Under the pieces are notes generated by a model. The model ran no database searches. It was not told the DNA's origin and was given only the letters and a program-made list of their open reading frames with translations. 64,000 nt of DNA. Origin: an uncultured Acidobacteriota bacterium. GTDB lineage: Bacteria; Acidobacteriota; UBA6911. Below, one piece after another: positions 2,374 through 6,546 of the stretch (within the stretch, counting starts at the first letter, position 1; every line of letters begins with the position of its first letter). The stretch lies in the NCBI GenBank assembly GCA_964441405.1, contig CAYTYP010000003.1, positions 42,283 to 106,282 on the forward strand. Direction: 5' to 3'. Position numbers and translations under genes: made by a program.

Positions 2374-2465
2374 TTATACGAATTACGAATTACGAATGAT
2401 GGATTACGAATGACGAACAAACGCAATTCGTAATTCGTAATTCGTAATTCGTAATTCGTAATTTT
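2374..2465. repeat. Intergenic palindromic element built of tandem heptamers (ATTACGA)n ... (TCGTAAT)n
   Basis: Left arm attatacgaattacgaattacgaatgatggattacgaatgacgaa; right arm aattcgtaattcgtaattcgtaattcgtaattcgtaatt is its reverse complement; ~40-nt arms able to form a long hairpin between two + strand genes. Confidence 0.6.
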
Positions 2466-2484
2466 CTTACTGTACCGGGAGACT

Positions 2485-3036
2485 ATGAATGAAACCGCGG
2501 CTATAACTGTTGCGTTGGATTCGAAAGCCTCGCACGCCGCCATCCTGGATGTAGCGCAAATACAATTTCATGAAGATTTCCGAAAGGCATGCGAAAAGAA
2601 CTTCTGCCGCAAGTATGACACCAATTGGATGGGGCCGCCGGCTATTGGTCCCATCGAGATATTGAGGCAGCGGGCCTTACGCTACAAGAGAGGTTTGTTG
2701 TTCCAGACCGTGCATCCTGTCGCCAGCAATTTCGACATGGAGGGAATGCTCGAAGGCGCCAAAGAACACAAGGAGATTTTCTGGGATCTGATAGATAGGA
2801 TCAAAAAACAGTTTCCGGAAGATGATCTTCTTCCTCTCGACGCCGGGTGCTGCAGCCTTTGTGAAAAATGCGCATACCTCGATCATGAAACCTGCAGGCA
2901 TCCCGAGCGGGCTGTTTCCTCAGTCGAAGCTTATGGCATAAATGTCATCGCATTGCAGAAAAGCGCAGGCGTCCCTTACTACCACGGTAAAAACAACGTC
3001 TGCTACGTCGGTTTGATTCTATTCAATCCGGACTGA
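2485..3036 (+). CDS. DUF2284-like predicted metal-binding protein
   Basis: 183 aa with C-terminal Cys cluster (GCCSLCEKCAYLDHETC); this family is commonly encoded beside corrinoid methyltransferase systems; family assignment from memory. Confidence 0.45.
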   Translation: MNETAAITVALDSKASHAAILDVAQIQFHEDFRKACEKNFCRKYDTNWMGPPAIGPIEILRQRALRYKRGLLFQTVHPVASNFDMEGMLEGAKEHKEIFWDLIDRIKKQFPEDDLLPLDAGCCSLCEKCAYLDHETCRHPERAVSSVEAYGINVIALQKSAGVPYYHGKNNVCYVGLILFNPD

Positions 3037-3195
3037 CTTCAAGCCCAAAGAATGGGAATTTCGTAGCGGGCAATTTGACGGTCGTGGGTGACCAGAGTCA
3101 ATTTCTCAACGAGGACTTGTGCGATAAGCATTCTGTCGAATAGCTGTTGTGATATCATCTTGCGTAATTAGAAGAAAGAGAAAGGAGCGACTGCG

Positions 3196-3819
3196 GTGGC
3201 GGAAACGGACGGGTTCGTTGAAGAAAAAATCATCTACTTCGAGAATCCTGGGCGCCGGAATACCAGAAAAACCCTTGAACTGGCTTTGACGCGGGCTAAA
3301 GCTCGGGGAATTAAAAAGATAGTCCTCGCCTCCACGACAGGCGAGACCGCCCTTATCGCGGCAGATCTTTTCGCCGGCGCAGATATAGAAATGGTTGTTG
3401 TTCCACATCAATATGGTTTTCGCGCCGGGCAGCGTTTTCCTGAGGCGTTGATAACGGATTTGGAAGAAAAGGGGCATCGGGTTTATTTCGGGACGATGCT
3501 TTTTCACACGGACGATTTATATGGATCGAGAGTCCCTTCAGTGCTGGCTATGCTTCTGCGCACATTCTGCCAGGGGATGAAGGTTGTTCACGAAATTCTG
3601 CTTATGGCGACCAATGGCGGTTGCGTCGACGCCGGTGAAAAAGTCGTTGTGGTGGCAGGCACCGGGCGAGGATCCGATACGGCTGCGGTTGCGATTGCGG
3701 CGCCTTCTTCCAGACTGCACGAACTTCACATTACAGAGATCATATGTAAGCCGCTGGAAACCCGATCGTGGCCTCTCTCCGGTGCGCCAGTTTCTCCAAA
3801 TCCGGAGGTGAAGCCATAG
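3196..3819 (+). CDS. Pyruvate-kinase C-terminal (alpha/beta) domain-like protein, hypothetical
   Basis: GTG start with AAAGGAG RBS; G(E/D)xVVVVAGTGxGxxT pattern resembling the PK_C domain; weak assignment. Confidence 0.35.
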   Translation: MAETDGFVEEKIIYFENPGRRNTRKTLELALTRAKARGIKKIVLASTTGETALIAADLFAGADIEMVVVPHQYGFRAGQRFPEALITDLEEKGHRVYFGTMLFHTDDLYGSRVPSVLAMLLRTFCQGMKVVHEILLMATNGGCVDAGEKVVVVAGTGRGSDTAAVAIAAPSSRLHELHITEIICKPLETRSWPLSGAPVSPNPEVKP

Positions 3820-3923
3820 ATGGTTGATTCTTTGCTGTAACGAATGCGGCAGCCGTTCTGGTAACGCCGGCGTTACCAGGAAAGAACTGGGGTAGTTATT
3901 ATTAACACGAAGGTGCAAGAATT

Positions 3924-4775: not shown

Positions 4776-5716
4776 TGAAAACACAGAATCCTCGTGAAGT
4801 GTATGGCAGGACCCTGGTTGAACTGGGTCGAGAAAATCCCAATATCGTTGTGTTGGAGGCTGATTTGGGAAAGTCCACAATGTCCTGCTATTTCGAGCAA
4901 GCTTTTCCTGAGCGTTTTTTTGAAATGGGAATAGCTGAAGCCAATATGACCTCTTTCGCCGCGGGTTTGAGTTTGACCGGGAAGATCCCTTTCACCAATT
5001 CGTTTGCAGTATTTGCCGCCGGCCGTGCTTTCGATCAGATTCGTCAAGGAATCTGCATTCCCGGACTTAACATCCGAATTGTAGGATCGAGCTCCGGATT
5101 ATCCGATTTTGGCGATGGCTCAACGCATCAATCTGTGGAAGATGTCGCCATTATGCGCGCCCTTCCCAACATGACGGTGCTTGTCCCTGCCGATGGCAAC
5201 GAGACAAGGACAATGACACGCGCCCTGGTAGATTATTCCGGCCCTGTTTACATGCGCATCTCTCGAAATGACCTGCCGGATGTGATGCCCGAGAACGAAC
5301 CTTTCTCAGCCGGCAAACCGCATTTGATTCGTCCGGGGTCCGACATCGTCGTTTATTCAAACGGCCCAATGGCAAGTCATGCGATGGAGGCGGCGGAAAT
5401 GCTGGCCGGCGAAGGGATTTCGCTTCGTGTTGTAAATGTCAGCTCGATGAAGCCGGTGGATAAAGATGCTGTTGCAGCTCTGGCTGACGGCATGAAGGGT
5501 GTAATCACAGCCGAAGAGCATTCTCTTATCGGGGGGCTTGCGTCTTTGATCAGTGAAATCCTTCAGGGGCGATCCCTAGCAATGAAAGCTATAGGAATTA
5601 ACGATCGCTTCGGACAATCCGCCCACAGCTATGACGATCTGCTGCGTGCATACGGGCTGACGCCGGCGCACATCGCCGAAGCTGCCAGGCAGCTGATAAC
5701 AAGTCCAAGATCCTAG
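4775..5716 (+). CDS. Transketolase, C-terminal subunit
   Basis: Pyrimidine-binding and C-terminal transketolase domains (FEMGIAEANM..., GxSxDGxTHQ); start overlaps the upstream stop (ATGA coupling). Confidence 0.85.
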   Translation: MKTQNPREVYGRTLVELGRENPNIVVLEADLGKSTMSCYFEQAFPERFFEMGIAEANMTSFAAGLSLTGKIPFTNSFAVFAAGRAFDQIRQGICIPGLNIRIVGSSSGLSDFGDGSTHQSVEDVAIMRALPNMTVLVPADGNETRTMTRALVDYSGPVYMRISRNDLPDVMPENEPFSAGKPHLIRPGSDIVVYSNGPMASHAMEAAEMLAGEGISLRVVNVSSMKPVDKDAVAALADGMKGVITAEEHSLIGGLASLISEILQGRSLAMKAIGINDRFGQSAHSYDDLLRAYGLTPAHIAEAARQLITSPRS

Positions 5717-5728
5717 GAGTTTCTTCTC

Positions 5729-6469
5729 ATGCGTTTATCAAAAAAGGTCGCACTGATTACCGGCTCCGCACAAGGCATAGGAGCGGAGATCGCCCGCAGC
5801 TTCTGGAATGAAGGAGCTATGATTTTTCTTGGAGATATCAATGAAGCGGCGGGCGAGAAATTGGCTCGGGAACTGGAGGGATCCAGTTTTGTGAAATTGG
5901 ATGTGTCCTCGGAACAAAGCTGGATGAAAACTTTAGAAGTGATTCACTCCAGAAAAGGGCGGCTGGATATTTTGGTGAACAACGCCGGAATCAACATACG
6001 TAAGAATATTGAGGAGATGCCGGTCGAGTCCCTGGAGGCGATGCTTGCCGTCAATGTCAAAGGGCCCTACCTCGGAATTAAGCATTCCTTGCCGCTTATG
6101 AGGGCGTCGGGAGGAGGGACGATCCTCAATATGTCCTCAATCTGCGGAATCATAGGCCACCGATATACTAACGAAGCCTATACCATGACCAAAGGCGCAT
6201 TGACCCTGCTGACAAAATCTGTGGCCGCCCGCTACGCCAAAGACAATATCCGATGCAATTCGATTCACCCGAGCACTGTGGACACCCCGATGCTCCAGGC
6301 TGTTCTCACGGATCCTGAGCGGCGCGCCGAACGTTTTAATGAAATTCCTCTGGGCCGGCTGGCAGCGGGCGCGGATGTCGCCAATGCATTTGTTTTTTTG
6401 GCCAGCGATGAGGCGGCATTCATCAACGGAGTCTCTTTTCCGGTCGATGGCGGTTTGACGGCCTGGTAA
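5729..6469 (+). CDS. SDR family oxidoreductase (FabG / glucose 1-dehydrogenase-like)
   Basis: TGSAQGIGAEIA Rossmann motif, NNAG, catalytic S...YxxxK spacing; AGGAG RBS. Confidence 0.85.
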   Translation: MRLSKKVALITGSAQGIGAEIARSFWNEGAMIFLGDINEAAGEKLARELEGSSFVKLDVSSEQSWMKTLEVIHSRKGRLDILVNNAGINIRKNIEEMPVESLEAMLAVNVKGPYLGIKHSLPLMRASGGGTILNMSSICGIIGHRYTNEAYTMTKGALTLLTKSVAARYAKDNIRCNSIHPSTVDTPMLQAVLTDPERRAERFNEIPLGRLAAGADVANAFVFLASDEAAFINGVSFPVDGGLTAW

Positions 6470-6475
6470 ATTCAA

Positions 6476-6546
6476 ATTACGAATTACGAGTGACGAATTA
6501 CGAATTAAAGTACGCGATTAATAATTCGTAATTCGTACTCGTAATT
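6476..6546. repeat. Second copy of the ATTACGA heptamer palindromic intergenic element
   Basis: aattacgaattacgagtgacgaattacgaatt ... aattcgtaattcgtactcgtaatt; near-perfect inverted repeat, same heptamer family as 2374..2465; between SDR and GH43 genes. Confidence 0.55.

Follow-up and report, generated by a model that had tools for sequence, protein, structure and literature searches.

What is a run of heptanucleotides doing directly behind a stop codon, and how does it come to be followed by a run of its own complement? The question is raised by four short intergenic elements in a 64-kb stretch of DNA from an uncultured Acidobacteriota bacterium (contig CAYTYP010000003.1), the whole of which is referred to here as the window. 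Three of the elements are built from the unit ATTACGA, and the first-pass annotation of this DNA described these three as a genome-specific family of hairpins resembling repetitive extragenic palindromic (REP) sequences or terminators, located between co-directional genes and pairing in several registers as slipped-strand or phase-variable elements might. Judged by their sequence, the elements are an inverted, hairpin-forming arrangement of the known short tandemly repeated repetitive (STRR) type of heptanucleotide repeat. We put at about an even chance the reading that they are arrays of heptanucleotide simple-sequence repeats that grow by slippage and act as an intercistronic or 3′-end RNA stem.

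Tandem Repeats Finder called a period of 7 for every arm, with 3.7–5.9 copies (Table 1), and the 14-mer ATTACGAATTACGA has 14 matches at up to two mismatches versus 0.47 expected, a number reached in none of 100 shuffles. Together with an inverted-repeat search and the sequence itself, these results bear out the reported ATTACGA-type/TCGTAAT hairpins and half copy, three loci within 64 kb of a unit that has just two G+C in its 7 nt. The inverted-repeat search pairs 37-nt arms at 89% complementarity in element 1 and 30-nt arms at 73% in element 2, and it recovers several alternative pairing registers for element 1, as had been proposed. The arms contain irregular units: the 5′ arm of element 1 reads TACGAAT TACGAAT TACGAAT GATGGAT TACGAAT GACGAA, and in element 2 the variant ACGAGTG of the 5′ arm is mirrored by TACTCGT in the 3′ arm. 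CRISPR arrays, which combine 23–50-nt repeats with unique spacers, had been set aside correctly, as the unit here is 7 nt, contiguous and without spacers. The inventory of three ATTACGA loci also stands, but it missed a fourth element at 32733–32799, which has a different unit (CAGTRGT/ACYACTG) and the same build as elements 1 and 2. Among the window's intergenic regions of at least 35 nt, four of 38 stand out by lag-7 autocorrelation (0.62, 0.46, 0.44 and 0.73, versus 0.17–0.36 in the others).

As RNA, element 1 is predicted to fold at −48.2 kcal/mol (z = −9.1) and element 2 at −30.2 kcal/mol (z = −4.6); element 4 gives −33.2 kcal/mol on the + strand versus a much better −49.3 on the − strand, and element 3 has no fold (z = +1.3). 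Some 34 pairs are predicted in element 1, 25 in element 2 and 21–33 in element 4, and the predicted stems are AU-rich and 25–37 bp long, which would suffice for an RNase III substrate by the size criterion of ~20 bp of double-stranded RNA. At gathering thresholds, Rfam recognizes nothing in the window except a tRNA-Ser, and in E-value mode the elements give only sub-threshold matches to eukaryotic pre-miRNA hairpin models.

All four elements are located in non-coding DNA between open reading frames (ORFs) with Pfam matches, and all begin 0–9 nt past a stop codon. Elements 1 and 2 fall within a co-directional row of genes (URO-D-like, DUF2284, PK_C-like, transketolase N and C subunits, short-chain dehydrogenase and GH43), and for these two the placement between co-directional genes holds. 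Element 1 starts 9 nt past the TAG stop of the URO-D-like gene (989–2368), and ends 13 nt ahead of a Shine-Dalgarno sequence, GGGAG (2477–2481), and 22 nt ahead of the DUF2284 ATG (2485); element 2 starts 6 nt past the TAA stop of the short-chain dehydrogenase gene (5729–6469) and ends 23 nt ahead of the GH43 ATG (6570). It does not hold for the half copy, element 3, which overlaps the last base of the TAA stop of an EF-G-like gene (14690–16780, + strand) convergent with a PilZ ORF on the − strand. Element 4 starts 6 nt past the stop of an MFS transporter gene (31102–32727), its 3′ arm overlaps the stop (32795–32797) of a convergent biotinyl-carrier-like ORF (32795–33112, − strand), and its hairpin occupies the whole 67-nt gap between the two stops. 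A Logan contig (L121, corresponding to window 6479–10204) starts within the 5′ arm of element 2, where the repeat has probably broken the assembly.

Table 1. Parts of the four heptanucleotide elements in the window (coordinates are window positions)
Feature	Position	Strand	Composition and remarks	Source
Element 1, 5′ arm	2377–2417	+	ATTACGA-type heptamers, TACGAAT x5.9, imperfect (variants ATGATGG, ATGACGA)	Tandem Repeats Finder
Element 1, apical spacer	2418–2424	+	CAAACGC; separates the two arms	
Element 1, 3′ arm	2425–2463	+	AATTCGT x5.6, perfect; pairs with 2377–2417	Tandem Repeats Finder and inverted-repeat search
T-rich tail	2462–2468	+	TTTTCTT; abuts the element 1 stem	
Element 2, 5′ arm	6475–6507	+	AATTACG x4.7, variant unit ACGAGTG	Tandem Repeats Finder
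Element 2, loop	6508–6521	+	AAAGTACGCGATTA	
Element 2, 3′ arm	6522–6546	+	TAATTCG x3.7	Tandem Repeats Finder
Element 3, single arm	16780–16806	+	ACGAATG x3.9; without a complementary arm	Tandem Repeats Finder
Element 4, 5′ arm	32733–32759	+	CAGTAGT/CAGTGGT/CGGTAGT x3.9	Tandem Repeats Finder
Element 4, 3′ arm	32773–32799	+	ACCACTG x3.9	Tandem Repeats Finder

The same junctions can be followed in relatives, obtained by a metagenome scan with the transketolase C subunit that returned 80 loci, many of them from wetland and peat samples; those at 79–89% protein identity keep the gene order of the window. After the dehydrogenase stop, where the window has its ATTACGA hairpin, L125/L126 and L140 carry a hairpin in which ACGATTG/ACGATTT faces CAATCGT/AAATCGT (ACGATTT being one substitution off ACGAATT), L146 has a terminator with A-tract, GC stem and T-tract, L136 has a GC hairpin, and the other relatives have nothing. 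After transketolase C, L125/L126 carry a 75-nt hairpin, (ATTCGAG)n..(CTCGAAT)n, and L146 and L132/L133 only a short CTTCGAG..CTCGAAG hairpin, while the junction to the dehydrogenase gene in the window measures just 12 nt. After DUF2284, L126 has TCAGCCA..GGCTGAT arrays – bringing to three the different units within 5 kb of this contig – and L146 a GC terminator. No heptamer hairpin is present at the element 1 junction in L148, L149 or L201. What recurs is the position just past the stop and the stem-loop shape; the unit, and even the kind of hairpin, turns over fast. As in element 2, irregular units are mirrored between the arms in relatives (ACGATTT/AAATCGT in L126 and GGCGGTT/AATCGCC in L146), and the arms are thus true inverted copies and not two independent arrays.

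Two side observations concern these relatives. In L126 (5900–5960), and in L125, the transketolase C frame appears to extend across the (ATTCGAG)n 5′ arm as far as a stop in the loop, which would add ~11 repeat-encoded residues. A conserved motif resembling an extended −10 box, TGTGATATCAT, is located upstream of the PK_C-like/transketolase genes in the window (~3150–3165), L146 (~4086–4096), L148 and L193, and in L145/L146 it follows directly upon the 3′ arm of an ACGATTG hairpin.

The suggestion that the family is genome-specific does not survive comparison with other genomes. An exact scan for (ATTACGA)3 with one genome per species gave at least 120 stretches from many phyla, and the same array occurs in 65 stretches of viral contigs. 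The matches listed include Nostoc, Calothrix, Anabaena, Rivularia and Planktothrix, Acidobacteriota (Pyrinomonadaceae and others), Chloroflexia, Anaerolineae, Thermoflexus, Ignavibacteria/Melioribacteraceae, Saprospiraceae, Chitinophaga, Bacteroidales and Planctomycetota, among others; complete genomes with the arrays are, for instance, Melioribacteraceae OY782765.1, Nostoc AP018288 and Calothrix AP018178. In this set the cyanobacterial arrays are mostly of one orientation, and the hairpin form is found mainly in Acidobacteriota (L010, with three copies in 2 kb, and L090) and Chloroflexota (L012, L049 and L101), and also in Planctomycetota (L045 and L048) and unclassified metagenome-assembled genomes (L082). 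Among the 120 genome loci listed, none of which overlaps the window, and with crude ORF calls, nearly all arrays are intergenic, 34 in convergent and 12 in divergent contexts, with distances to the nearest stop codon piling up at −1 to +9 nt. The REP-like layout noticed at first, a dispersed family of intergenic imperfect palindromes, is supported.

In Nostoc-type genomes some ATTACGA arrays are broken by inserts of ~40 nt, e.g. ACTCGCC..GGCGAGAAGCAAGCTACG, at L006 575–640, L020 4970–5041, L050 1899–1968, L107 3606–3685 and L116 3600–3671. Small dispersed repeats are said to have been described inside the heptamer arrays of Nostoc by Elhai in 2008, and we take the inserts to resemble these.

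Tailed phages carry the same arrangement. Contigs L223, L236, L231 and L438 are real tailed-phage fragments by their PHROG matches (terminase, tape measure, tail assembly and HNH endonuclease). In L223 and L236 (55–60% G+C) an AT-rich hairpin starts 2–8 nt past the stop and ends ~24–27 nt ahead of the next start, which is the layout of elements 1 and 2, and L231 contains seven clusters in 9.9 kb. In L438, which uses the unit of element 4, a hairpin occupies almost every gap of a tail-gene row, and CAGTNNN..NNNACTG arrays fill nearly every gap of L487. A set of related phages with several structural proteins in common – L465/L487/L448 (61% G+C), L433 (45%) and L261 (42%) – has different units at the same junction: CAGTAAT/ACTGGCC/ACTGACC, ACTGAAA and TTCGTAA/AATTACG. 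The search for a protein common to the multi-site phage contigs found only structural-module homologues.

In the L438 region 2870–6448, the hairpins are 80–140 nt long and start 2–5 nt past the stop, and the next ATG follows the stem by 2–6 nt, too short a distance to hold a ribosome-binding site; the stem would juxtapose stop and start codons, which suggests termination-reinitiation across the hairpin. The single viral contig represented by L218 and L226 (65% G+C) has seven (ATTACGA)n arrays in one orientation, each followed directly by a G-rich, GGGGAGG-like run, and these resemble an AU-rich leader directly upstream of ribosome-binding sites.

Does the recurrence of these units go beyond what composition would give? 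Among viral contigs, the window units ATTACGA and ACCACTG are found in 65 and 58 stretches, the relatives' unit ACGATTG in 35 and the published unit TAACTGA in 107; the control units give 22 (ATTAGCA), 4 (ATATCGA), 5 (TTAGAAC) and 67 (AGACTCC). Raw counts of this kind were discarded as a measure of unit preference, since the control (AGACTCC)3 with its 67 stretches makes them ambiguous; this control has one site per contig, probably a single conserved site in a common phage lineage. They were replaced by the number of loci with at least two separate sites, which is 15 of 65 for ATTACGA, 20 of 58 for ACCACTG, 39 of 107 for TAACTGA and 3 of 35 for ACGATTG, and 2/22, 0/4, 1/5 and 0/67 for the controls in the order given above. 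This count cleanly splits ATTACGA, ACCACTG and TAACTGA from the composition-matched controls. In loci seeded with ACCACTG, the CAGT core is kept in 55 of 124 other arrays versus ~5.5% expected, and the CAGT family therefore seems to consist of a core of 4 nt and a triplet that varies. The group takes in TAACTGA and presumably also the cyanobacterial STRR units CCCCAGT and CAACAGT; the window unit CAGTGGT is one mismatch off TTGGTCA, which we take to be the sequence of STRR2.

The order of the arms is strongly biased. It is a strand-independent property, as the palindrome is identical on both strands, and with duplicates removed the ATTACGA arm comes first in 26 hairpins and second in 10, CAGTGGT first in 16 of 16 and TCAGTTA first in five of five. 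The 10 reverse-order ATTACGA hairpins are mostly low in G+C, Nostoc-like and with short spacers, and the three two-armed elements of the window all follow the majority order. A candidate rule, that stop codons are absent from the 5′ arm and present in every frame of the 3′ arm, was rejected: ATTACGA, CAGTGGT and TCAGTTA obey it, but ACGATTG, which has stop codons in the 5′ arm, and ATTCGAG, which has them in neither arm, do not. The irregular string ACGAATGATGG is found only in elements 1 and 3 within the 4.5 Mb of array-rich DNA compared, and being private to both it indicates that these elements, 14 kb apart, are related by copying and not by independent slippage.

How such arrays may arise and act can be outlined from these comparisons. 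Replication slippage would lengthen, shorten and re-unit the arrays; complementarity of the arms would be upheld by hairpin-templated copying (quasi-palindrome template switching), by selection, or by both; and copies may also move between sites, as with elements 1 and 3 and their private irregular unit. Length change by slipped strands, one of the early suggestions, is seen between the phage contigs L213 and L250, which are 91.5% identical over 798 nt with a sole gap of exactly 7 nt inside an ATTACGA array (three versus four units). The idea of phase variation was not upheld: neither reading frames nor promoter spacers contain the arrays, which begin past stops and end 22–24 nt ahead of the following start, and a 7-nt change alters only the length of the stem. 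Once transcribed, the long stem would constitute an intercistronic or 3′-end RNA structure that could stop 3′-to-5′ exonucleases, serve as an RNase III target, or both, and would thereby fix how much of an operon transcript's upstream part is present in relation to its downstream part, a mode of action known from REP elements, Correia/nemis elements and the RNase III sites of phage T7; element 1 may in addition terminate some transcripts. Three features point to such a role: stems of at least two helical turns, placement between bacterial and phage cistrons alike, and positional equivalence with ordinary 3′ hairpins of relatives. Median stems are 30 pairs for the ATTACGA class and 39 pairs for the CAGTGGT class, lengths that suit double-stranded-RNA enzymes better than terminators.

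Several observations weigh against a role as an RNA stem. Among 16 hairpins between co-directional genes, the sense fold is the more stable in seven and the antisense fold in nine, with a mean difference of 0.16 kcal/mol; folds of such equal stability show no sign, in the form of G-U pairs, that selection has acted on one of the RNA strands. Compared with L146, one arm in L145 is decayed and the other shows no compensating change; purifying selection on the stem therefore cannot be strong throughout. A single arm without a fold is all that element 3 and most of the Nostoc arrays possess, the L218/L226 arrays are located in 5′ regions just upstream of their ribosome-binding-like runs, and the L146 array that adjoins the −10-like TGTGATATCAT is in a promoter or 5′ region. 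Slippage alone, moreover, leaves the recurrence of a few units in distant phyla and the fixed arm order unaccounted for.

The absence of a strand-selection signal and the uncompensated decay in one relative keep a largely neutral or selfish origin a serious rival, even if we think it rather doubtful: slippage at pre-existing small hairpins, tolerated in the space from a stop to the following ribosome-binding site since the stem folds away, would produce the arrays with no benefit to the cell. It would also account for the patchy occurrence among close relatives, with the element 1 junction empty in three of them and 12 nt in the window facing a 75-nt hairpin in L125/L126 at the transketolase C–dehydrogenase junction, and for the unequal arm lengths in phage L438; at this same junction the short hairpin of L146/L132 and the expanded arrays of L125/L126 look like a seed and its expansion. 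It sits poorly, however, with the reuse of few units at many sites per genome or phage, unlike the composition-matched controls, with the strong bias of arm order, with the tight clustering of distances to stop codons among the genome loci listed, and with the CAGT core conserved across co-resident arrays. That the hairpins are intrinsic (Rho-independent) terminators, bidirectional at convergent genes, is very unlikely in our judgement, even though element 1 has a stable stem followed by ATTTTCTT (six T of eight), elements 3 and 4 are located between convergent genes with element 4 filling its entire stop-to-stop gap, convergent contexts are enriched among the genome loci, and canonical terminators stand at the same junctions in relatives. 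Elsewhere most copies lack a U-tract: the 8 nt past the stem are ATCTTATA (four T) in element 2, element 4 has no U-tract, and five or more T occur there on only seven of 52 ATTACGA and one of 34 CAGTGGT hairpin sides. With stems of 30–39 bp that are AU-rich, where those of terminators are short (about 5–14 bp) and GC-rich, terminator-likeness is not supported as a general property, and a good U-tract is seen in element 1 alone. Apparent operons moreover contain elements 1 and 2 as well as the phage copies, only 22–27 nt upstream of the next start; a simple terminator scan missed the elements, but that scan is itself uninformative.

The polarity of the arms and the strict 7-nt period direct attention to proteins. 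In one version, which we consider improbable, the array serves a single-stranded RNA or DNA binder with a 7-nt footprint, e.g. a cold-shock-domain protein with one monomer per heptamer or ribosomal protein S1; its binding to the first-transcribed arm would compete with the hairpin and make read-through, processing or translation of the next gene depend on conditions, a step to which we give equally little weight. The CAGT family with its conserved core and variable triplet would suit such a protein, as would the one-orientation arrays directly upstream of ribosome-binding-like runs in phages L218/L226 and L213/L250, and the same idea has been put forward for TAACTGA repeats, citing CspB with one heptamer per protein (PMC4679880). 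Against it, known cold-shock proteins favour U/T-rich sites with weak specificity (PMC4679880), units vary between the sites of a single contig such as L126, and the mRNA-sense orientation of TAACTGA in Beggiatoaceae is opposite to the 5′-arm orientation of the phage hairpins. Miniature mobile elements – a miniature inverted-repeat transposable element (MITE), a REPIN or a Correia-like element – or targets of a hairpin-recognizing transposase or nuclease, spread horizontally and perhaps by phages, seem to us most improbable of all. Identical units in many phyla and in tailed phages, contigs with the unit at several sites, the irregular unit private to elements 1 and 3 and the fixed arm order all fit mobility, and horizontal transfer has been proposed for TAACTGA repeats (PMC4679880); but elements 1 and 2 show neither target-site duplications nor conserved non-repetitive ends, with no direct repeats flanking element 1 (..AACCATTAT / TTTCTTACTG..) or element 2 (..TAAATTCAA / ATCTTATAG..), and none of the 55 window ORFs is a transposase, RAYT, integrase or reverse transcriptase. 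In relatives the units differ from site to site, and the different units of related phages at one junction argue for turnover in place. A broader proposal, unlikely though somewhat less so than a binder, is that a small heptamer vocabulary (ATTACGA, CAGTNNN including TAACTGA, and others) forms polar hairpins that punctuate junctions across phyla and tailed phages by means of dedicated sequence-specific machinery, which might be a nucleic-acid-binding protein with a 7-nt footprint that toggles the stem or an enzyme that installs and spreads the arrays.

The window is otherwise ordinary chromosome, with nuoJKLMN, ATP synthase I/a/c, greA, superoxide dismutase, catalase, malate dehydrogenase, HtrA, sulfatases, a multihaem cytochrome c and GH43. 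This genome uses conventional hairpins too, as a terminator-like palindrome with A-tract, stem and T-tract is located at 14555–14627 in the divergent gap upstream of the EF-G-like gene, and a perfect 19-nt GC-rich hairpin at 52904–52949 between convergent HtrA-like and ferredoxin-like genes. At 57576–57660, at the extreme end of the ATP synthase c gene, a perfect period-8 repeat (TGATCTAC x3) is followed by a hairpin ACACGAA..TTCGTGT and TTT with ACGAA motifs, the + strand of which folds better than the −. The catalase ORF (46876–48555) matches the Pfam catalase profile only from position 102 on, and an ORF in another frame (46403–46984) is located upstream of it and overlaps it; the region 46403–48555 may reflect a frameshift, a pseudogene or a sequencing error. 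No gene was called in the 1.1-kb gap at 45776–46875.

Knowledge of cyanobacterial heptamer repeats goes back to 1990, and such repeats have proved the most over-represented long simple-sequence repeats in bacteria; the window presents their hairpin form in a non-cyanobacterial genome. Four points lend themselves to testing: the reuse of units across phyla and phages, the fixed order of arms, the conserved post-stop position with turnover of the unit, and the terminators at the same places in relatives. Should the stems act as signals for RNA processing or stability, operons would have in them a cheap and fast-evolving means of adjusting the expression of their genes, one that annotation pipelines ought to flag; if the arrays are read or written by a dedicated protein, the system would be new, and the arrays would be a new class of regulatory or mobile intergenic element and not passive products of slippage.

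Published cases of heptanucleotide repeats come from Calothrix, Nostoc, Xanthomonas, Beggiatoaceae, some Bacteroidetes, Microcystis and Geobacter, including the STRR sequences of heterocystous cyanobacteria (Mazel 1990, as cited in PMC4692102 and PMC4679880), GGGAATC/GGGGATT repeats (PMC4692102) and the heptanucleotide elements of Geobacter (PMC2700814). According to PMC4679880, Mrazek (2007) found that heptanucleotides outnumber every other class of long simple-sequence repeats in most bacterial genomes and polymerase slippage has been proposed for them, and the TAACTGA unit is common to several phyla, possibly through horizontal transfer. Inverted pairs are noted in passing for some Xanthomonas and Nostoc repeats (PMC4692102), and a single 'indirect repeat' for Beggiatoa (PMC4679880). 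The literature searched contains no description of the ATTACGA unit, and no account of the hairpin form as regular operon punctuation in non-cyanobacterial bacteria and phages, of a fixed arm order, or of terminator replacement at orthologous junctions. The window elements share with STRR sequences and long simple-sequence repeats the head-to-tail 7-nt units, the intergenic location and the units common to different phyla. For the many dispersed copies and the 7-nt length steps of these repeats, the counterparts seen are the three ATTACGA loci in the 64 kb of the window and the one-unit gap between the phage contigs L213 and L250. The published arrays are mostly of one orientation, whereas the window has a run of units and its complement, forming predicted stems of 25–37 bp past stops. 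In the strict sense STRR also implies a heterocystous cyanobacterial host, and the window ORFs look non-cyanobacterial, with a multihaem cytochrome c, sulfatases, GH43 and no photosynthesis genes among the 55.

REP/BIME sequences and REPINs of proteobacteria (REPINs being the subject of PMC3116915) are likewise dispersed imperfect palindromes in intergenic regions, often past stops or inside operons, but they consist of a single conserved GC-rich unit of 20–40 nt tied to RAYT, whereas the window arms are periodic arrays with a variable number of units. Intrinsic terminators resemble the elements in forming a stem-loop past a stop, in the U-rich tail of element 1 and in standing, as real terminators, at the same junctions in relatives; the window stems differ in being three to five times longer and AU-rich, and most copies have no U-tract and many are inside operons. 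REP elements are thought to stabilise upstream mRNA, and they would be the best functional analogy. Neither the Correia/nemis elements of Neisseria, 100–150-bp MITEs bounded by terminal inverted repeats and target duplications, nor the unique sequences that form the RNase III sites in the early region of phage T7 are built from heptamer arrays; both share with the stems predicted here a long RNA structure between cistrons, in phage operons as in bacteria, and their stems are co-transcribed with the genes and then cleaved by RNase III, kept as protective 3′ hairpins, or both.

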